From Sarea resinae (taxonomy: Eukaryota), in contig JAPEUD010000019.1 of NCBI GenBank assembly GCA_026026165.1, positions 124,001-188,000 of the forward strand: a stretch of DNA of 64,000 nt, read 5' to 3'. Each line of letters begins with the position of its first letter. The first letter of the stretch is position 1. The notes under the pieces were generated by a model, which saw nothing but the letters and a program-made list of their open reading frames with translations, was not told the DNA's origin and did no database searches. This document shows positions 1,810 through 44,934 of this stretch, piece after piece. Both the position numbers and the translations under genes were made by a program.

Positions 1810-4569
1810 CTATGGAATGCTTTGCATCATGTACGGCTGAGGACCAGATTGCGGCGTGCTCTTAGATATAGAGGGTATCGAACCATACGCCTGAGGTGGA
1901 AGAGGCCTCTTGTTCTCCACGAACGGTGACATTTGAGGCGGGGGTGGTTTGGGAGGAAGATGTGATGGCGTTCCCCATTTGGATATTGTGCTGTGATTTG
2001 ACAATTGATTGGGAGACGGTTGATGGGAAGCATATGGCATATTCTGAGTACTGGCTGATTGTCGAATGCTGGGGCCTTGAGGAAATTGGCCTGGGGAGAA
2101 AGGGGCTGGTCCGCCCTGAGTCATCGCCTGATGTGGTACATGAGCTGGCATCTGCTGAGCGGCAAATTGACCTGTATACTGAGGATTGATGTCGGCAGGG
2201 GGTTGCGAGCCATATCTCTCAGCCTGGTTCATTCCATACCCACTGCCGGGAATGAAGGATTGAGTTTGTGGATTGAATGTTTGGCGGTTGTAACTTCCAG
2301 GGATTGGATGCTGGCTTTGGTAAGGCGAGCTACTCGAGCTACTGTTAAAGGATGGCTGTGGCAACTGTCCATACGGATATGGGCCCCGCGAATTCACAGG
2401 GGAGAAATTCTGCGAGTCTGCTGGAGATCGCGCTCCCTGAGCTGGAAAGGGAGCGGGGTACGAATTCGGGTAGTACGGCTGTGTCCACTGCTGTTGTGGA
2501 GGTTGAGTCTGAGGCCGTGCCTGGGCAGGAAAGCCACCTCTTCCTACTGGTGGCACTGCTGCGGATCGTTGTGCTTCCGGACTCCAAGCTTGGAACGGGA
2601 TGGCTTGCGGCTTCGGCTGACTGGGCTGGCCATAGCCTGCCTGGGGCATCTGAAAAGGGCCTTGACTCGACGGCGGAGCTCCTTGGCTTGACATGGATCC
2701 ATGACTCGCCATAGGATAAGAGGAAGGCCCATCCATGGTGAATGGCTTAGGATATTGCGGGCCGCTCGGTATAGTAGCTCCCATTCCCATCGGTTGGCCA
2801 CCAAGTGACTCGGGAGGAGGAATATACGAATCAGCAAACGGCGCCCCACCGTAGGTGCCTGCGTAAGATCTTGCAGGAAATTGTTCTGGATGATAGTAGG
2901 CGTTGAATTGTGATCTCGCCTCAAAGCCGTCATCATTCGCATTCCTCTTCTTGGGCTTCTTCTTGCCTGCACCCGAACTAGATCTTGACACGTCCTTGCC
3001 ATCTTCCGCATTAGTACCTCCTTCAGCATTATCCGATTCTTCAAATCCTTTGAAGATCCGTTCCCTAGCTTCTTTGTATTTTGCTTCTCTTTCTTCTCGA
3101 GTCAAAAGATGCTTATCTTTGGTAGACATGGAGCCACTGGACTTCATCCCACTTCGGTCTGGATCGCTACCACTATCACCACCAGCTTCCGAGGTGGTCT
3201 TCGAAGGATCTTCCGAGCTTCCGGGCGTATTCGCATCCGAACTCGGCTTCTCTCTATCCGCACCGCCTCTTCGCATGATCTTTACGGCAGGGACATTGGG
3301 CGGCGGCGTGTTTGCCGACGTTGGAGGATTGGAGATTCCCGTTAAAGGTGGAGGACTAGCATGCATATCAGAAAGGTAACAAAGAAAGGCAAATAGACTG
3401 AGGCTTACAGTCTACAAAATGGAGTCCGATAAAGTCGAACAGCACTAACGGCATTGTCAACAAAATGCGTTAGATAATAGTAGTCCGCGAGCTTGTGTGC
3501 AAGCAGTCGATAGAATGAGTTGCAAGGCGGAAGGTCAAGTGTCGCTTCCCTAGGATTGTTAGCGAAAGGCAATTGATAGCAAACCATCAAAAGCCAACGT
3601 ACTGAGAATCTTTGACAAAGTTGATGACATCTTGCTCGAGTCGCAAGAGAAACAGCCTATCCTTTGGTGATTCCAGTGCTTCCAGCAGCTTCTCATCCGG
3701 GTCCTTGCGAGTGAATCCATAGGGTGTTTCCGCCCCTTTGGAAGCCTCTTGCCCTTGAACAAGGGAAGGCAGAGATTCGTCTAGCTTTGGTAGGACGCCA
3801 ATAGCATCAGGCGACTGCGAGTCTGGATGAGGCATATTGGGATGGAATCGCGCCGCTATTATGCCACGTTGGGGAGAGGGCCCGAAACGCTCGGAAATTT
3901 CATGAAATTGGTCTCGAAATGCCCGAGCGCCAGCCTCAGAGCCGAACCTCGAACTCGCATTGGTCGAGAAAGGTCCATTAAAAGACTCATCGTCTTCCGC
4001 AGCCTTGAGGCTCGCGCTATCGTCAGGACGTAGAGATTCTTTCTCGTCCAAAGCAAACGTTGCGCCAGATGCTACACTCTTTCCATCAAGACTGGCGGGT
4101 TTTCCCGACGTGTCCGATGTAGAGACATGTGTTTGAGCGTCGTCGAAAGTAGAGTCAACTCGTACTGGACCACTCGGACGATCTGAATCCTGGGCGCCTC
4201 GCGATGCTGGATGGTCCGTACTCTCGTCAACTTGGACAGCTTTCAGATCCTCGCTGAGATCTTTTATTTCATGCTTCCAATCGGCATTGGTGGGATTGGA
4301 GTCACCATTAGAATCACCCGTCCGAGTAGAGGAAGCGGGCTCATTGAGGTCCGAGGTCAGCGACGATTCTTTGTCAGGAAGACGTTCGCTGACTTTGGCG
4401 TGGCCATCTCGATTAGAGACAGGTCTTTGTTTTAATTGCGCGGCAGACGCAGACGCAGCGACCTGGGACCTATCAGTATTGCATTGGAACCGAATTTGAA
4501 GATCAGCTCTGAGCTCACCTGCGCAAAAGAAGCCTTCACAGTAGGATTGGGAAGAGCCGAAGTTGGCAT
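1810..4569 (-). CDS. R3H- and SUZ-domain RNA-binding protein with P/Q/Y-rich low-complexity tail (Rbs1/encore-like)
   Basis: Exons 4569-4519 (an alternative in-frame ATG at 4587), 4462-3603, 3549-3409 and 3355-1810, with canonical GT-AG introns. R3H: LEALESPKDRLFLLRLEQDV...LPPCNSFYRLLAHKLADYY. SUZ: KIMRR...TREEREAKYKEARERIF. Confidence 0.85.
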
Positions 4570-6204
4570 GCTTGTCTGGCCAATCATGACTGCACAGAAG
4601 ATGTCCTGGTAACGCGGAACCGACAGTTCGTGATTTTCTATGTTTCGCTGAACGCGGGGGAAAATGAATGTGTGGTTCCAAAAATTTTGTAGCAATAACC
4701 GTAGACGGAGGAAATTATTCAGGGAAAGTCAAGGGAAGAAAGAATCGTGTTCCGGGCATGATGAGAGGTTGGCATTTGAATCCTCATAAGCACGAGCGTG
4801 TTGAAGATGCTGCCACAAGGCGAGAAGGGGTACGAATGTCGTCTATGAGGCCGCACAACGTCAAGGCGAAGAGCTTCTATTCTTCCAGTAGAGCTCTCCA
4901 ACGTCTAAGCTTCGGCGAAAGAGAAGCCCAAAGTCGGGTGGGTCGAGTGAATCTCAACAGCTGAAAGGGTGGTGGAATCAATCAATAAGATGAAGCGGTT
5001 CTCCAGAGGCCAATGTGGTCACCCCGTCCCAAGGCCAGTCAAGAACTGGCAAGAGGCGATACCTCTATCTAAAGGGTATGCTGCTTGGAGCGAGAGAGCC
5101 TGTTCGTGGATGAATGGGAGCGAGTGATGGTGAGGGTGAGGGTGATGGTGGTGAAGGTGTCGGCGGTGGTGGTGGTGGAAGGGTCAGGTCAAGTTGGGAG
5201 TCGGATAAGATACTTTTTCACACGTATTCATACAGCGAACGAGACGGGCCTTGAACGCCAGTCAAGCACTCCATCCACTCCATCCAGGGATCCATTCAAA
5301 ACTGGATTGACAGCTCTGTTTGCAGCTCGTGCAATGCTTCTTTGTCTGCGCAGTTCCTGAAGTGCACCATCTCTGGCCCTCGGAGAATGAAGCGATCTTG
5401 GGGTTGAAAGGAACACATTGATATAGTGGAGGTTGCGCTTACGGATACCACAGGGCACTCCCGTACCAAAGGCTTCGTGACCAGCGTACACTGAAGTCCG
5501 GCGGCTCTTGGCTCTTGGCTCTTGCGGGAGTCAGACGCCCATACGGCAGAATGGAGAATGTTGTCAACCTACTTCAGTATCTCAACATGGCAAAGTCCTT
5601 GATGATGACAAAGAATGATGATTACCTCGTTCGTGATGATCTCCACTACGGATTGTACTTCATAAATCGAGGAACAGATTCTCTGCTTATGATGACCGAT
5701 TCTTGTGATAGCAGCTTTAACTCCCCGAGGTCAGTACGTGTTGATCCATTGATGATGTCCAGAGTACGATCTACGAGGCCCAAAGATAGTTTAACTCGTG
5801 ATCCGTCATCCATGTGTCTCGCGCCTGCCAGAAAGATATTTCAGGAACTTGCCGCATCTCAGCCTTTCCCAATGTGGTAATTCAACCTGACCTCCAGCTC
5901 GGACTCGATCACCACCTGCCCTGCCACTGCAACACGACTCTGGGGCTTTTTGCATTTGTATTTGCATCAGTAAACGGTTCAACGGCAAGACACTCATTTA
6001 TCTTCTCAGCATCATCCACCTCATATTACGCATTTTTCACGCGTCCAGCTGCGCCAAGGCCGGCGCCAGAAGCCGCGTCTCTTGCTTGCGTCAACTTCCA
6101 TCGCCCACCCACCCATCGAGTTCCTCAACACCCACAACAACCCTTGCACTCTCCTGGAATCTCTCAGCTGTATCGCAAACCGCGCGTTGTTGTGTGGTTG
6201 ACGG

Positions 6205-7406
6205 ATGAATCGCTATCGAGGCCCCACCATCGGCGGGCCCTCCAAGGCCACGGCCTCGACCCTGTGCCAGAAATGTTTGAAAAAAGATAAGTCCCACTTC
6301 TTGCCGCAAGATGGACGGCATCGTTGCGTGAGCACTGCAGCTGACGGCTCTCAGCACGACACTACAGCTATGAATGCAAGACCTCGGCGCAAGAGCGCCC
6401 GTATACATCGCGGCCGTCACGAACGCAGCAGTTGCTCAATCCAAAGCTCGTTCCCAAGCTGACGAGTGATGTCCCCAATGACCTCTTACGGAAGTGCGTC
6501 TCCCTCCCCGATATCTGTGCTCAAGTCGCCATGCTAATGCCGTTGTCAACTTATAGGAAAGGAATCGCAGACGAGCAACTAGCTAAGAAAGAAGAAGAAC
6601 GAGGCCGCAAACGAAGTCTCCATGACGACAACGGTGACCCCCTCTACAGGCGTCAGCCGTCGCGCTCAGTATCCTCGTCGTCATTCTCATCCATCTCCAC
6701 TGTCTCTACCAACAAATCGAGCTCCCGCTCTCCCGCCCCGCACGTCTCCTCAATCCCCGCCTCCGACGCCCGCAAGAGGCGCCGCCGCTCAGTCTCTTCG
6801 TCCGCATCGGCATCCTCGCGCAATTCCTACGATCACGATTCCCGACAGAGCCGCTCGAGTCGCTATCGCGACCGCAACACGCGCCTGCGACGCAGCTCGA
6901 CGAGTCCGGCCCAGCGCGGTCGCCGGAGAAGCCGGTCCACGCTCACGCCAATCGAGCGCGACTCCCAAGCTCAGAAACGCGCAGCACACAGCCCGGGCTT
7001 CGACCGGCGCAAAATGCCTCGTCACAGACGATCCCTGACTCCCTCCTCGCCCTCGTCCGGCTCCGACGATGACAACGATAACACACGCATGCAAACACAG
7101 AGAGACGAATCCCAATCACGACCACGACCACGGCATCACGAAGGGGCACCTCGTCCGCGGCGTGGCCACGACCGTCTCCGCGACGCACAGAGGCGCTATT
7201 CCAACGACGACGATAGGTACGGGAGCAGTTATCGCGATCCCCTTAATACGGATCAGCCGCGGCGTAGTCGACCGCCTCCAGCTTCTCCTCTCCACTCTCG
7301 ACCACCACCACCGCCACCGTCACAGCAGCAGCAGAGAAGAGAGCGCAGTCTGAGCCCTTTCAGCAAGCGTCTGGCTTTGACGCAGGCCATGAATATGGGC
7401 CGATGA
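6205..7406 (+). CDS. CCHC zinc-knuckle protein with Ser/Arg-rich tail (ZCCHC10-like)
   Basis: Exons 6205-6286, 6358-6493 and 6557-7406 give CQKCLKKGHYSYEC (C-x2-C-x4-H-x4-C), then ERPYTSRPSRTQQL, an RS-rich region and a C-terminal RERSLSPFSKRLALTQAMN. Intron 1 must be AT-AC; intron 2 is GT-AG. Confidence 0.85.
6287..6357 (+). other. Non-canonical AT-AC intron with U2-type donor and branch signals
   Basis: ATAAGT...GCTGAC (6340-6345)...CAGCAC. Only this junction restores both the frame and the exact CCHC spacing. Confidence 0.8.
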
Positions 7407-8202
7407 ATCGAGCTGATTAGGGAACGTGAATTGGCATTGAAGAGACATGGGATTGGCAATCGGGAATCGGGCATTCTCGTTCTTTTGGTTTTTGTCTTCT
7501 GTTTCTCTTCTTGGGCCGTCCTTTTTCTCTCTTCTCTTCTCGCCTCTCCTCTTCTCTTTTCTTGTCCTCTCCCCCCCTCCCTTTCGTTCTTCCATCCTTT
7601 CTCTCTTTCGTCCTTTCCCTTCTTCTCAATTCTTCCATACCAGGCTGACGATCCCCCTCTCCCTCCATACCTCCCACACCCTCCCACAGTGTATGTACAT
7701 ACGGACAAAAAAGTGCAAGCATGCCCATGTACATTAGGCCCGCCCAGCGATGATTGCGTAAGGGATCACAGTGCGTGTGAAGAGGAACTCAGATGCCAAT
7801 ACCAGACAATGACAATGCTCTGGCAATGCTATGCTATACCAACGCAGCGCAAACCACGGCATCGATGTTGGCATTACCGATTGAACAGCGTTGACCTACC
7901 TACGTACCCCATTTACTACCTTACCGACCTACCTACCACCCTACCTACCTCTCTACCTACCCTACACCTCTTACCCTTACTACCCTACCCTACCTCAACT
8001 ATACGGTATAAGATAGGTAATATAAGGTAAATCCTAGCCCTTTATATCCCGTACTCTGTATGTCCTGTCCATGGCACCGCCAACCCGCTAAACTGCCAAA
8101 CCCCTATCCTATCCTGCCATACATACTATACTATACCAACTTACTTTACTTTACTTTTCCCTGCCTTATCTTACCTTACCTTATCTTACCTTACCTTACC
8201 TC

Positions 8203-8297
8203 ACTATGTACACAGGACCTTACTATATACGCAGGACCTTACTATATACGCAGGACCTTACTATATACACAGGACCTTACTATATACACAGGACCTT
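8203..8297 (+). repeat. 19-bp minisatellite, 5 copies (ACTATATACRCAGGACCTT)
   Basis: Units at 8203, 8222, 8241, 8260 and 8279. Preceded by (CCTTA)n-like repeats and followed by a 14-bp duplication, AAGTACAGAAGAGT x2. Confidence 0.9.
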
Positions 8298-8342
8298 ATA
8301 TAAAGCAAGTACAGAAGAGTAAGTACAGAAGAGTAAGGTAGA

Positions 8343-8383
8343 TAGGTAGGTAGGTAGGTAGGTAGGTAGGTAGGTAGGTAGGT
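8343..8383 (+). repeat. (TAGG)n microsatellite
   Basis: About 10 perfect tetranucleotide units. Confidence 0.95.
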
Positions 8384-11559: not shown

Positions 11560-13254
<1,695 letters not shown>

Positions 13255-18912: not shown

Positions 18913-21071
18913 ATGACGACTGCCGATGTCAGAGACATGCTGGATCTGCCCACGGACGGGCACCCACGACCGACAAAGAAACAGAAGACGGTTGAGAAGC
19001 GACCAGGTATGTCAAGGCGGATCTTACTTGGAGGCAGCAGTCATTGACGAGTCTTCTCAGAGGGCATCACTCGAGAACTATACGCGCTGCTCGGTGAGCG
19101 TGCCCCTCCCATCGCGATCTCAGATCATGGCAAATACAAGGAGAGGCCGAAGCGGGCGCATAAGGCTCAGCCATGGTGTGTCCCAATAAATCAAAGCTAC
19201 TCCTGGAAGAATGCATTTCCTAACGCGGCCATAGGGAATCGGTGTCGTTTACGAATCCCGCGCGTAATGATGGACTGGTCCTGCGACATTGGAGACGGAA
19301 GCGCGATCTGGGAACCCACACCACCTCAGGCCAAGCCGACGACGGCGTCTCTACCGATCAAGAGAGCAAGCCGTCGCCGCAGGAATCGGAGTACTATTAC
19401 GCCAAGTTCAATGTCAAAATCGACGGGCCGCAATACACCGAGGAGCAGTACAACTCCCAGCTCCGGAGCGACGACTGGAGCAAAGAAGAGACGGATTATC
19501 TCGTTGATCTGGCCCTGGACTACGACCTGAGATGGGTCATCGTGGCCGACCGCTACGACTTCCAACCTGCCAAAACTCCCAAACAAGAAGACGAAGAACG
19601 TGCTGCGCTTATCCCAGCCCCAAAGCGACGTACGATGGAGGACATGAAAGCCCGGTATTACGACGTCGCCGCAAAAATGCTCGCCATCCATCGCCCCATT
19701 TCAACAATGTCGGCCGCCGAATTCGATCTCCACGAAAAAATGAGCAAATTCAACCCCGTGCAAGAATCCCAGCGCAAGCACCTGGCCGACGCTTTACTCT
19801 CGCGAACGCCCGACGAAATCAAAGACGAAGAGATTCTCCTCGGCGAACTCAGACGTATCGTCAACAACGAAGATCGCCTCCTCACCGAACGCAAAGAACT
19901 CCGCGAGCGCCTCGAATCCCCGCAGAGCTCCGGAACCACTCAAATGTACCAGTCCAGCCAAGGGCTCGGCCAACTCATGCAGAGCCTTCTTTCAGCGGAC
20001 AAGAACAAAAAACGCCGCTCGCTCCTCGGACCCGGCGAAAACGCCGCCAGTCCTGCCCCAGGAGCAGCAGCTGGACCATCGGGCGCCACAGCCAATGGTT
20101 CCACCCAGAAGGATGCCACCAAAGACTCGCACCGCGAATCCCTCAGCGGACCTTCCGGTGCTGCTCACAAAAAGGGGTCTACAGCAGCCGCATCAGCCGC
20201 CGCAGCGGCAGCAGCAGCAACAACAACAGCGAACGCCCCCATCGAGCGCCGTGCTTTGAGTCCCAAAGAAGAAGAGAGATACGGCGTCTCGTACCACGAG
20301 CGGCTCAATCCAGGCCCGCACTTCCGGCACGACAAGGTCGCTAAACTCGGGGCGGCCAAATCCAACGTCCAGGCCACGAAGATCAGCACCGCGCTCACGG
20401 AACTCGATATTCCTCCCCGCCTCGTGATGCCTACGGCCGCTGTGTGCGCCGAGTACGAACGACTGATCCAGAGCATCCATTCCTTGCTAGATGTCAGGAA
20501 AGTCAGTGAGAAGGTGGAGGCGGAGATCAAGGTCGCGGCCGCGATGAAGGAGGAGCGGGAGCGGAGAGAACGAGCAGAGAGGGGAGAGCCGGAACCGGAG
20601 CCCGAGGCTGAGAAGGAGAAGCAATCACATACGGAGGCTCAAGGCGACAAGGAGCATGGGAATGCAAAGGACCCTGCCAAAGACCCGCAGCCCAAACAAG
20701 AACACCAAGACCATGATGCCGACGTCTCCATGACCGACGCTCCCGCCCCTTCTTCTTCTTCGGTCCCAGCCGCCAACCCCTCTGCAGACGTGCCCTCCAC
20801 AACTCCTACCACTACTTCCCCTACCTCCACCGCCGCACCACAAACGACAGACCCCACAGACAGAACTGCTCCAGCCAAAGCAAACATTACCGCTGCCGCA
20901 CCACCACCAACATTAGCACCAGCAAGTCAGGCACAAGCACAGGCACAAGCCCACAAGCGCAGCGCCAGCGTCCTCAGCAACGCGAGTAACAAGAGCGCGA
21001 ATGCAGGTTCTTCCACGGGACCGGGTGCAAGTACAGGGCCTGCGGCCGGCGTCAAGAGGGTGAAGAAATGA
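18913..21071 (+). CDS. SWC4: SWR1/NuA4 complex subunit Swc4/Eaf2 (DMAP1 homolog)
   Basis: Exons 18913-19006, 19061-19175 and 19235-21071. Motifs: ADVRDML, EGITRELYALLG, FTNPARNDGLVLRHW, SANT domain WSKEETDYL...DLRWVIVADRY...MEDMKARYY, and LVMPT. Confidence 0.93.
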
Positions 21072-40650: not shown

Positions 40651-43600
40651 TCACTCGCCCATCTCGACATCACCATCCACATCAACAAGGCCAGAGCCAG
40701 GGTCAGGGACTCCAGCCTCAGGAAAGACCCACTCATGAACCGCCGCTTCGGCCTCGCGCACCTCTTCCCCTTCTTCAATCGGCATGGCCTCGGCCCCGAT
40801 CGTCGTGTTCTGCTGCGCCGCCGCCACGATGCCGGCATACCAGTCACGAAGGCGGCCTTTGTCGAGATAGTGCTGCAGGGCGTCGTTCTCGGCCTGCAGG
40901 TCGTGCGCGACGGGTTCGACGAGGTCTTCTTTGGTGCCGAAGAGCGGGCGGAGCTCGCGCGGCTCGCAGCCGGCGCCGAGGACTTGGTCGGGCGAGAGGA
41001 GGGGGACGGAGATGTTTTTGTAGACGTCTAGAAAGTAGTCCGGGCGTTAGTCCAGTCTTCTGCACATGGGAGGAGTACCAGTATATCACGTACGAGCGAG
41101 ATGGCAATCCCTCAAGGTTCGGAACAAGAACGTGTCGTGCGTGGTCTGCTCGACGGCGGCGTCGTCCATGTTGGCCGTGTTGTTGATTTCTTCCCAGTCG
41201 TCTTTGATCATGCAGCGCCTCCAGATGATTTTCTCCATCAGTGCTTTCCGGTCCTTGTTCATCCCCTTTTCGCTTAGTCGGAGAATTTGCAAAGCCAATG
41301 TGAATTCCTGGCCGGCAATCGAGTCTTCGCCGTGGGTGTCTTCGGTCTTCGAGGTCGAGTCCATGAGGGTTAGAACGTTGATCAACTGTTCGGGGTTCAT
41401 TGTTTGATGGCTGACGAGACTTGCGATGCCGAGTTCCAGTAGTTGATGTAGTGCCGGCTTACCCTTGACAGTCTCGACGCCGTATTGATCCATAGCGAGC
41501 TGCAATGCTGCTTTGTCATCAATGGCTCCATATAGGGCCGGATGCATGTGGTTGAAAACCCTCTCCTGGATCTCGACGAGGGTGAGTTCATCATTGATAG
41601 ACTCGACTCTGTCTTGAATGTCCTCGTCCGAGACTTGTTTTCCTTCATGTCCCGCAAGCCATGCCAGCTTCCCCAGACTCAGCTCGACCTTCTTGCCCCA
41701 CAAGTCTTTTTCCTGCTTCTGAGCTATATCCAACAAAGTGTTGGAAGCATTCAAGTAGTCGTGCTCTCCAGTGATGTCATTGATCCAGCACAGTTTTGAC
41801 CAGCGGGGATCTTGGCGCAGAAATCTACTCAGATAGGGCTGGAACTCGTTATTATCGTCCAAGAGGCTGCCGAGTCGGTTCTGACGAATATAGTTGATGA
41901 ATAGTGCTCGCGCCCAGTCATCACCAAATTTACCAAAATAACGTGTGATGAGCTCCTGCATCCTTAGTAATCGATTTTCTGCAAAGGCTGCCTCTTCTGC
42001 GCTCACACCAGGCTCGGCGATCCTGAGGCTGAGATCCCCGACTTCCTCTCCCACCAAGGACACAAGTGCTTTCACCTCGCCGTATTTTTCGGCCAAGGCG
42101 ATTGCCTGGTCGGTCAGTCCCAACTGAGAAAGCTTCGTCATCTGGACTTCTCGAACACCGAAATGAGCAAGCTTGACATGGGTGCCAGCGTTTCTCATTG
42201 CGTCTTCTTCTTGCGCAAGACACCATCGATAATGCTCGATGTACGTCAGGCAGCACATCTCAACCAGTCGGACGTTCTCTTCGCCGACCTTTTTGACCAC
42301 CTTGGGATCCGGTCCTCCTTCAACGAGTGGCTTATTCCAGTGGCTGAGAGCCATCTCTCGAGCTAGATCGACTAAATTTTTGGTGGTATGTGCGACTGGC
42401 CAGGTTGACGTCCAGAATTGGGGCAGACCTTCATATGCAGATGTAAGTATCCCATCCTGCAAAGGCTCGTTCTCTAAGCCATAGATTTCCGCATTGAGCT
42501 CGCGGAATCTGAACGCCGTCTCTAGCGCCCCAAGTGATATGTCATCGGCTTCACTGATGAGGCCCATAATTGTTGGATGGTCTTTTGTCCCCTCATTGTA
42601 TACTTCGACCACCGCCTTCCAGGCCCATGGGACCAGATTCTCTAAACGCCATATGTCTTTGATGAACCACTGACGAACTTCGTCTAATTCTCCTAATTCT
42701 GGATCCGGCTCCGACTTCAAGTCTTCGTTCATCAAAACCACTATCTCGGAAAGGAGAGTGCTGTGTTTTCTATCCTTGTGCTTCAAACGGGAATCGTATG
42801 ACTTCCAAATAGCTCTACCAGAAGCTATTCTTTCCGCATTCCAAATCAATTTCCACTTTGTTAACCGAGATAGAGGAGGGTAGTTTGCTTTCATATGAAG
42901 CGCCAGATTCTGTAACGCGATTGCTTTCTGTCTCAACTGCTGATCTAGAGACGGATTCAGAGCTGGGATGAACTCGCTTGTCGTTTTCGTAATCTCATCA
43001 CTGATGGTCAAGGCGGCCATCTCGACTTCGTCTTGAGGGAACTGAACCTCAGACCGTCCAGAAAAGCTGAGCAAATTCTCGGAGTTCGCACCATAGAAAA
43101 CAGCCTGTTCAATCTTGCTTTTTGCCGTAATGATTGCTTGCTGTATGTCGTCGTTATTCTCTTTGGGCTCAAACGCAGCAACTCGAACAACTCCGTATCC
43201 CTTAATCAGAAGAGCGCAGCCTGGGTGTTTCGCCAGCTGTGTTTCGTCGTTCATCCTCGGCATGCGTTTATCATAGCTGTCTTCCACACCGCAGCCCACG
43301 ACGTGATAATCAGTGTCTTTGCGAAAGTCGATGGCATCCTCAAACGGCTCCGGAAGCTTGTGAGAATCGAATAAGAGTTGGGATTCGGGTGTATTCTCAG
43401 GTCCTTTGAGCGAAGCAAGTACGATTGCCGTGTCGAATACCACGAACGCTGTATGAGCAGGTTCGGGAAGATAAATTCGTGGTTTCCACTCAACATATGC
43501 TGGAACGGGAGTCGTATAGCATCTTATCTTATGGACCATTTGGACCTTGACTCTGTCGTTTCCCAAAAGCAGCTCTATCAACGAATATCCAGGCCCGTTG

Positions 43601-44934
43601 CTTGCTCTGGAAGCTACCAGCGCTATTATTGAAATTTCCGAACCAGGGCCGGCTATGCTGACGTCCGTGCTAGTCTCTGTGACCGGAGCAAAAGCGAAAT
43701 CAAGGACTTCATATGAGTGCTCGTCTTGGGCGTCCAGTCCAACAGAAGCCTTAATTTCTTGTCCAGCGTCAAACTCTCCTCGTAGAGTAACATGTCCAGA
43801 CCAATTTATATCCCAGCACTGGAATATGCCCTTCGCGCTAGCAATGACAACGTCTCTCTGGCCTCGAACGTGTGACTTTCCAGCCCTTGTAGCAACCACG
43901 TCCCGTCGCCAGCCTCCGCCTCCGAGAACATATTTGAGTCCGCTAAACAGGCCCCCACCGCCCGAGCTGGCACCATAGCTTCGGAGGACTTGTACGAGAA
44001 CAGCCGGTCTGCCTTGGGGATCCCTCACTCGGAGATGAGCTACTCGGCCACTACTGAGATTCAGGACGAAGCCCGCTGGCTCGGCATCGACGATCTGCAC
44101 GATGGTCTCGCCGGACAACATACTACCGATCGATCCCTCCACACACTGTTGTCGTTGTCGCATCAGATCCGCAGTTGCGGCACTTGCAATGGATTCCCAG
44201 TAAATGATTTGACCCGATACAGGCATTACTATGACTAAGCCCGGCTTTGTAGATGAGGCAGATCGTGTCGTAAGGGACCCGATTGGAAGCGGGTCTGAGA
44301 GTCCCCTTGACGCATTGCGAAGTTCGAAGGAAAAGCTCTCTGCTGGTAGCGACTGGGGCGACGTGTAAGACCAGATGTGGGCTTGAGTAGCGGTAATAGC
44401 GAGAGCATATCCGTGGGAGAAAGAGATTGCACCATGTAGACGCGCTATAGAATTATTAGCAGGTCCTAAATGAAGAGCAATGGCAGTTTCTACCGTTTTT
44501 CTCGGTGCGAAAATGGTCTGGAAAGGCGGGAAGCTGGGTAACTATGTAGCTGTCGTTCTTTGTCTACACCGCCGAATGTCAGCTTGCGCAAGCCATGAGT
44601 CAACAAGGAGTCCTACCAGCGTGAGGCTTCCATCACCCTTGCCTCCCCGCTTGCTTGATCTTGATTTCTCCCTCACGACCAATTGTTTTGGTCTCGAAGA
44701 AGCGTCTCCATCGAGACTGATGTTGCCTCGGTCGCCTTGCATTGACTCTTCTCCATCTTGCGCCTTCCCTGAGGGTAGTGAAAACGTGTCTTGGCTCAGG
44801 AAGCTGCGCTGCCTCTTCTTGTTACGTGGCGGAAGGCTGGCCGTAGATTCATCGGAGTGTGTTCGTTGCCGTCTTCTTGGATTGCGCGATGCAGGGAGGG
44901 TCGAAATATTGAGGGTAGAGTCGGGTGAGAACAT
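40651..44934 (-). CDS. NUP133: Nucleoporin Nup133/Nup132
   Basis: Four exons. MFSP...RNPRRRQR N-terminus, beta-propeller (PGLVIVMPVSGQIIYWESI), AKSKIEQAVFYG, LCWINDI, KVELSLGKL and IWRRCMIKDDW. Last exon ends GDVEMGE*. Confidence 0.88.

Follow-up and report, generated by a model that had tools for sequence, protein, structure and literature searches.

Here we report on an intron at positions 6287 to 6357 of a 64,000-nucleotide (nt) stretch of the Sarea resinae genome (contig JAPEUD010000019.1, positions 124,001 to 188,000, forward strand; referred to as the window, whose coordinates are used throughout). The intron starts with AT, ends with AC and splits the glycine codon of the zinc knuckle in a gene which, judging from its match to Pfam PF13917 (zf-CCHC_3) and from the names given to its homologues in the sources, encodes a zinc-knuckle protein that resembles ZCCHC10 and has a tail rich in Arg and Ser. 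The ends of the intron, its position and signals, its conservation and its losses were read directly from the DNA of the window and of orthologous loci. From these we conclude that it is probably a genuine spliceosomal AT-AC intron, ancient in Pezizomycotina, which would be removed by the major (U2-dependent) spliceosome and whose ends are probably frozen.

Gene structure and encoded protein

The gene consists of the following parts:

6205..6286, + strand: exon 1, from the ATG to the G that is base 1 of the split Gly codon; carries the first two knuckle cysteines (CQKCLKK)
6287..6357, + strand: intron 1, 71 nt, AT-AC, phase 1, U2-type signals
6287..6292, + strand: 5' splice site ATAAGT, after exonic AG; U2-type consensus with G1 changed to A
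6340..6345, + strand: branch-site motif GCTGAC, branch A at 6344, then 13 nt to the intron end
6352..6357, + strand: 3' end of intron 1, CAGCAC, with AC at 6356-6357 and an AG 3 nt upstream
6358..6493, + strand: exon 2, opening with bases 2 and 3 of the Gly codon, then HYSYEC and a conserved segment, RPSRTQQL...LLR; PF13917 positions 14-41, invariant alignment columns
6494..6556, + strand: intron 2, GT-AG, 63 nt; GTGCGT...GCTAAT...TATAG
6557..7406, + strand: exon 3, Arg/Ser-rich tail with the conserved RERSLSPFSKRLALTQAMNMGR motif at its end; TGA at 7404-7406

An in-frame stop codon (6199-6201) immediately precedes the ATG at 6205. Exon 1 closes with TGC CAG AAA TGT TTG AAA AAA G, its last base being 6286, and exon 2 opens at 6358 as GA CAC TAC AGC TAT GAA TGC. 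A preliminary description of this DNA, made from the letters alone, had reported these exon sequences together with the ATAAGT donor, the GCTGAC branch site and the CAGCAC end, and all of them were confirmed by reading the window. Since intron 2 is in frame and free of stop codons, the open reading frame (ORF) 6345-7406 looks uninterrupted. The spliced coding sequence (6205-6286, 6358-6493 and 6557-7406) amounts to 1068 nt, i.e. 355 amino acids and a stop codon.

The exon-2 frame matches PF13917 at profile positions 14-41 (E = 3.3e-11, 43.3 bits, cut-off 27), beginning one codon before the His. Residues 15-27, encoded by exon 1 alone, correspond to profile positions 1-13, at 16.3 bits and thus under the cut-off of 27. 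The two half-matches leave one residue at the junction, which is the split Gly. PF13917 is also listed for 114 of the best 120 homologues of the window protein. These are "zinc knuckle-domain-containing" proteins of many Pezizomycotina, some of them named "zinc finger CCHC-type containing 10" in the source, and the C-terminal RERSLSPFSKRLALTQAMNMGR motif of the window gene equals the family consensus in an alignment with homologues. The product had initially been described as SR-like (serine/arginine). This holds as regards amino-acid content, with 62 R and 62 S residues and 23 RS/SR dipeptides; Pfam detected no RNA recognition motif (RRM) in the protein, the zinc knuckle being its sole domain match. 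Because classical SR proteins require one or two RRMs in addition to an RS domain, the window protein is better called RS-rich by composition and does not strictly belong to the SR proteins.

Choice of the splice junction

Donors GT, GC and AT were combined with acceptors AG and AC around the site by a script, and several of the pairs hold the frame. The sole enumerated pair that restores the CX2CX4HX4C knuckle is AT6287-AC6357 (giving ...CQKCLKKGHYSYEC...), where the joined G|GA encodes the Gly preceding the His in exact fit to PF13917, as had been proposed. The preliminary description had further named GT6291-AG6354 as the nearest GT-AG pair. Its shift of frame into a stop codon was reproduced by the enumeration; what had been omitted is the in-frame GT-AG pair GT6291-AG6367 (77 nt), which yields CQKCLKKDNYEC with loss of the His. 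Solutions of this latter type are those chosen in other species by predictors restricted to GT-AG. Retention of intron 1 runs into a stop codon at TGA 6460-6462, where the frame listing places it in agreement with the original statement. Finally, AT6287-AG6354 (68 nt) does stay in frame and adds one residue to the knuckle (KKARH), again as previously stated.

Orthologous introns in metagenome loci

Exon 2 aligned with 36 homologues was used to scan metagenome contigs, yielding 80 loci with 80-93% identity. Each locus was searched for the His codon and for the point where CQKCLK[KR] ends, identical introns were collapsed and the window was added, which resulted in 39 distinct introns. In 59/80 loci this Gly codon is interrupted, likewise in phase 1. 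In 19/80, intron 1 was missing and GGN was read directly, and 2/80 loci were cut upstream yet ended with ...AC|G. The termini of the distinct introns were AT-AC in 37 cases and AT-AA in two. The ends and the position of the window intron are thus repeated in 36 further distinct orthologous introns. Alignment of orthologous loci had been suggested in the preliminary description, with uniformly GT-AG orthologues speaking against the intron; 0/39 distinct introns were GT-AG. Intron 2 served as an internal control: among its 40 distinct sequences from these genes, 39 were GT-AG and one was GC-AG. The length of intron 1 varied between 46 and 71 nt, compared with 45-283 nt for intron 2, and beyond the splice signals no conserved sequence was found within the 39 distinct copies of intron 1.

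Two single-base changes would make the window intron GT-AG, and one might suspect that positions 6287 and 6357 were wrongly sequenced or assembled, or that the gene is a decaying pseudogene. This is already contradicted by the occurrence of the same two bases in the 36 other distinct introns. Moreover, the exons are intact and conserved, with exon 2 up to 93% identical to relatives and the C-terminal motif conforming to the family consensus. The chance of an artefact or pseudogene is, in our opinion, practically negligible.

The AG at 6353-6354 calls for closer weighing. Were it the acceptor in S. resinae, the intron would be a 68-nt AT-AG intron, the protein would read KKARHYSYEC and the AC would be a mere coincidence of the CAGCAC tandem. 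Such a join is in frame, AG is the normal acceptor and CAGCAC ends are found in 5/39 distinct introns; the other 34 of the 39 have no AG there, yet they kept the AC end. The resulting x5 spacing is seen in none of the 51 homologues with a canonical knuckle and has one residue too many for the PF13917 match, while intronless genes read exactly K/R-G-H. According to the available parts of PMC1557818, it is also C, not G, at the last position that is needed for rescue of a G1-to-A change. We therefore regard use of this AG as the acceptor as quite improbable.

The AT-AA ends belong to loci L028, L050 and L057 (two distinct introns). In these, a GT at +5 together with an AG formed one base downstream makes an in-frame GT-AG pair, giving K-R-D-x-H and a knuckle longer by one residue. 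For the AT-AA species, no transcript was found in the protein-cluster look-up, which returned genomic-type models only. The change from C to A is also apparent between two closely related protein models, P0302 (...SR-H) and P0299 (...LS-H), where the last intron base, C in one and A in the other, is the only difference.

Splice signals and intron type

The 5' splice site of the 39 distinct introns always has A at +1, T at +2 and G at +5. Position +3 is occupied by A in 35 and by G in 4 of them, and +6 by T in 36. On the exonic side, G at -1 is invariant and A at -2 occurs in 38. Of the branch motifs, CTRAN occurs in 37 introns and GCTGAC in 16, and position -3 is a pyrimidine in 38. The consensus therefore consists of an AG|ATRNGT 5' site and a CTRAY branch, that is, of U2-type signals with G1 changed to A; the 5' consensus given for U2-type AT-AC introns in the available parts of PMC5029451 is /ATAAGT.

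Three further observations concern recognition of the two ends. First, the last complete codon of exon 1 has A at its synonymous third position, which contributes to the exonic AG|, in 36/37 intron-bearing and 8/13 intronless distinct loci (Fisher p = 0.003, the rows not being phylogenetically independent). Second, the distance from the branch A to the end of intron 1 is 10-13 nt in 36/37 introns (standard deviation (SD) 0.9) and exactly 11 nt in 25/37, compared with 7-19 nt (SD 2.6) in intron 2. Third, 10/39 distinct introns have an AG that follows the branch A but precedes the AC end and would need skipping; five of these, including the window, end with CAGCAC. Third-base bias, near-fixed spacing and AGs to be bypassed agree with U1 recognising the 5' end and with selection of the 3' site by other means than scanning for AG. 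The window copy of intron 1 is the longest (71 nt) and has the widest branch-to-end spacing (13 nt).

A short branch-to-3' distance is typical of U12-type introns. This distance (10-13 nt) and the AT-AC termini are what the window-family introns have in common with U12-type AT-AC introns, and they could be taken to indicate processing by the minor spliceosome. The motifs already contradict this: the ATATCC 5' site, the TCCTTRAY branch and CCTTAA were each found in 0/39 distinct introns, and so were a /ATATCCTT-like 5' site and a TCCTTAAC-like branch site, by which U12-type introns are distinguished. The signals are of the same type as those of the neighbouring GT-AG intron 2. The absence of U12 signals noted in the preliminary description hence extends to the whole set. 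It had also stated that filamentous ascomycetes lack the minor spliceosome, and the available parts of PMC2846911 and PMC11347168 do report Ascomycota to be without the U12 system and minor small nuclear RNAs (snRNAs). A U12-type intron appears very improbable. Rfam listed no RNA family, hence no snRNA, within the window, although 64 kb says little about the absence of snRNAs.

Homologous protein models

The 120 best homologues mentioned above provided a second view of the junction. The canonical x4 knuckle, always with Gly-His, was present in 51/120 models. Intron 1 was read straight through (CQKCLK[KR]D...RH) in 11, a GT at +5 was joined to an exon-2 AG (D-x-[YF]-E-C) in 9, the start was placed within or upstream of intron 1 in 31, and 18 were otherwise truncated or rearranged. 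The canonical knuckle is thus missing in 69/120 best models, largely by read-through, intron-internal starts or a wrong GT-AG pair, which bears out the earlier expectation that GT-AG predictors would mis-annotate the gene. The mistaken models are informative as to the 3' end. Of 42 models running from the intron into the His, 40 have R directly before it, 2 have S and none has G; R corresponds to C as the last intron base and S to A, while an AG end would give G.

Cluster members from one species may carry different models, and three model types were found in the Aspergillus niger group. In Phyllosticta citriasiana, the knuckle region of P0018 differs from that of P0284 only by a 16-residue D...R segment replacing G. 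The genome model of Oidiodendron maius (P0277) starts with MLTGTR inside intron 1 and agrees in 268/268 residues with P0115, which comes from Logan contigs, is an uninterrupted ORF and carries KKGHYSYEC. Entries from Logan, ENA and JGI were taken as unspliced ORF calls because elsewhere intron 2 is read through in them, and on this reasoning P0115 would be transcript-derived. The correct junction is already found in some public annotations, such as those of the A. niger, Phyllosticta and Histoplasma clusters.

Comparison of database proteins with the 80 metagenome loci was less productive. A 42-residue junction peptide was shared with database proteins in loci L037 and L055 only (P0068 and P0109). 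No canonical-knuckle database protein was at least 97% identical to any of the 80 loci beyond exon 2, and no intronless locus among them exceeded about 75% DNA identity to an intron-bearing one.

Translated segments of intron 2 were observed in several homologue models (e.g. P0001, P0014, P0017 and P0026). One member of the cluster of P0096 (Aspergillus niger group), P0251, is named "nuclear envelope protein Cut8" in the source, probably through an error of naming or gene merging.

Age, losses and persistence of the ends

Intron 1 is shared by classes of Pezizomycotina and, on this comparative evidence, is old. A tree was based on the conceptual N-terminal 125 alignment columns and is weakly resolved; the absence of intron 1 requires 5 changes on the maximum likelihood (ML) tree, at least 2 of them forced by well-supported branches. 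In L001-L003 intron 1 was lost and intron 2 kept, and in a large clade both introns were lost. The losses of intron 1 were precise, leaving GGN, and the gene is otherwise intact in those lineages. AT-AA ends arose twice (L028/L050 and L057). None of the 39 distinct copies of intron 1 had been converted to GT-AG.

The AT-AC ends most likely persist as a frozen state. We infer the following reason for it: conversion into GT-AG needs both ends changed and single-end intermediates would fail, so the intron would either stay AT-AC or be lost as a whole via a spliced copy. According to the available parts of PMC1557818, U2-type introns of yeast and human with a G1-to-A change are rescued by a last-G-to-C change, although splicing does not reach wild-type efficiency, and natural U2-type AT-AC introns are conserved between orthologues.

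Alternatively, the AT-AC ends might be under selection, with slow or second-step-sensitive splicing acting as a regulatory valve through autoregulation by the encoded splicing-associated protein or nonsense-mediated decay (NMD) of retained transcripts, along the lines suggested in the preliminary description. Several observations are compatible with this, namely that the termini were never converted in the 39 distinct introns, that both the length (46-71 nt) and the branch-to-end spacing are tighter than in intron 2, and that retention leads to the premature stop at 6460-6462. Moreover, catalytic C-complex spliceosomes were the only ones in which human ZCCHC10 was detected, as far as the available part of PMC3923134 goes, and the last-G-to-C rescue of G1-to-A is less efficient according to PMC1557818. 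Against this, the intron has no conservation outside the splice signals, and tight spacing is equally expected from the mechanical placing of a non-AG 3' site. The intron was also precisely lost in several lineages (19/80 loci, with the number of changes given above). Such recurrent precise loss suggests that the intron is dispensable and argues against an indispensable regulatory role; selection for a regulatory valve seems to us unlikely.

We can also speculate about an origin that combines several of these elements with the conversion of a minor intron, which the preliminary description had suggested. A U12-type AT-AC ancestor could have resided in ZCCHC10 before the loss of the minor spliceosome in Dikarya and later acquired U2-type 5' and branch signals with its termini frozen. 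It could now serve as a second-step proofreading gauge that tunes a protein of the catalytic-stage spliceosome. Such a scenario is unlikely.

Presumed mechanism of splicing

That intron 1 is actually spliced in S. resinae, and by which type of spliceosome, we infer from these comparisons. In the mechanism that we assume, U1 and U6 would recognise AG|AUAAGU, which equals the fungal 5' consensus apart from +1, and U2 would pair at GCUGAC. In the second step, a pair of A(+1) and the last C would substitute for the G/G pair, and the 3' site would be set by the short, near-fixed distance from the branch point and not by the first AG. Joining of G|GA would then create the Gly before the His and so the CX2CX4HX4C knuckle.

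Two other processes were set aside by reasoning. Adenosine-to-inosine editing might act on A(+1) but would be unable to convert the terminal C to G as well. The conserved consensus of the 5' site and of the branch favours the spliceosome over non-spliceosomal splicing of the HAC1 type.

Several points weigh against a major-spliceosome AT-AC intron with frozen ends. The loci are interrelated and many are near-copies, so that counts and p-values overstate independence. A same-species pair of complementary DNA and genome was not found among the 80 loci, and the argument from O. maius assumes that the Logan, ENA and JGI entries are unspliced ORF calls, which follows from the read-through of intron 2 and not from documentation. 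With a CAG located 3 bases before the AC end, the AT-AG product longer by one residue is possible as a minor or even the major isoform. The absence of U11, U12, U4atac and U6atac in the window organism is taken from literature at the level of the phylum. Lastly, selection for slow splicing would be an alternative to the reason proposed for the frozen state.

Surroundings of the gene

Downstream of the gene, tandem repeats occupy positions 7916-8383 (CTACCTACCACC repeated 3.8 times, CTTAC 12 times, a 19-nt unit 5.6 times and AGGT 12 times), and a C/T-rich tract is located at about 7480-7690, between the stop codon and the repeat cluster. Other genes were recognised in the window by a Pfam match and a long ORF:

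1810-3411, - strand: SUZ-domain protein
11560-13254, - strand: delta-aminolevulinic acid dehydratase (ALAD)
19224-21071, + strand: SANT/DAMP1-like protein
41086-44541, - strand: nucleoporin with Nucleoporin_N (PF08801, "Nup133 N terminal like") and Nucleoporin_C

ALAD shares 90-91% identity with its counterparts in many lichen-forming and other leotiomycetan fungi, which points to a filamentous ascomycete.

Relation to known AT-AC introns

U2-type AT-AC introns are an already known but very rare kind, of which 24 were counted among about 610,000 introns of five species in the available parts of PMC1557818. The animal ("type II") representatives named there, in human SCN4A/SCN5A and in TAF2 of human and Drosophila, likewise combine AT-AC ends with a U2-type 5' site and, as the window intron, are conserved between orthologues. 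Unlike them, the window intron occurs in a lineage reported to lack any minor spliceosome. Introns of its family are tiny (46-71 nt), have a fungal CTRAC branch at a near-fixed distance from the 3' end and are common to a fungal subphylum; their dependence on the major spliceosome is a prediction. Engineered yeast and human introns with G1-to-A and last-G-to-C changes (as cited in PMC1557818 and PMC5029451) have the same end nucleotides, are spliced by the major spliceosome and provide the mechanism assumed here. These double mutants are laboratory constructs of reduced efficiency, as far as the available text tells, whereas the window intron is natural, apparently obligatory and located in a conserved gene.

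Closer at hand is the nested AT-AC intron of Saccharomyces cerevisiae RPL30 (PMC5029451), which represents an endogenous AT-AC junction in an ascomycete without the minor spliceosome, as here. According to the available parts of that paper, AT-AC splicing concerns about 1-2% of RPL30 transcripts, its 5' site is unlike /ATAAGT and it is dispensable for the protein. The window junction, by contrast, is the only one yielding the conserved protein. U2-type AT-AC introns in filamentous fungi were also claimed for xylanase genes, where AT-AC II introns are "hypothesized" (PMC1557818). This is a different gene family, and the available text of that paper holds nothing on the window gene or on conservation across the subphylum. 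Fungal RNA-seq papers, in their available parts, give AT-AC only as bulk percentages. Our literature searches brought up nothing published about an AT-AC intron in this gene, about a minor intron in ZCCHC10 (supplementary tables of minor-intron surveys, which could list ZCCHC10, were outside the search) or about any U2-type AT-AC intron conserved among filamentous ascomycetes. The junction would thus be implicit in databases and, as far as these searches reach, undescribed.

For practical purposes, fungal annotation pipelines should permit AT-AC junctions at this gene. Splicing of AT-AC introns by the major spliceosome has so far been hypothesised in fungi or seen as a side product of 1-2%, and here such an intron is apparently obligatory for a conserved protein. 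It is common to many classes of filamentous ascomycetes, including the genetically tractable Aspergillus and Penicillium. Because it appears to be obligatory, widely shared and never converted to GT-AG, yet recurrently lost as a whole, the intron may offer a natural system for the pairing of the first and last intron nucleotides, for the selection of a non-AG 3' site and for the persistence and loss of rare intron types.

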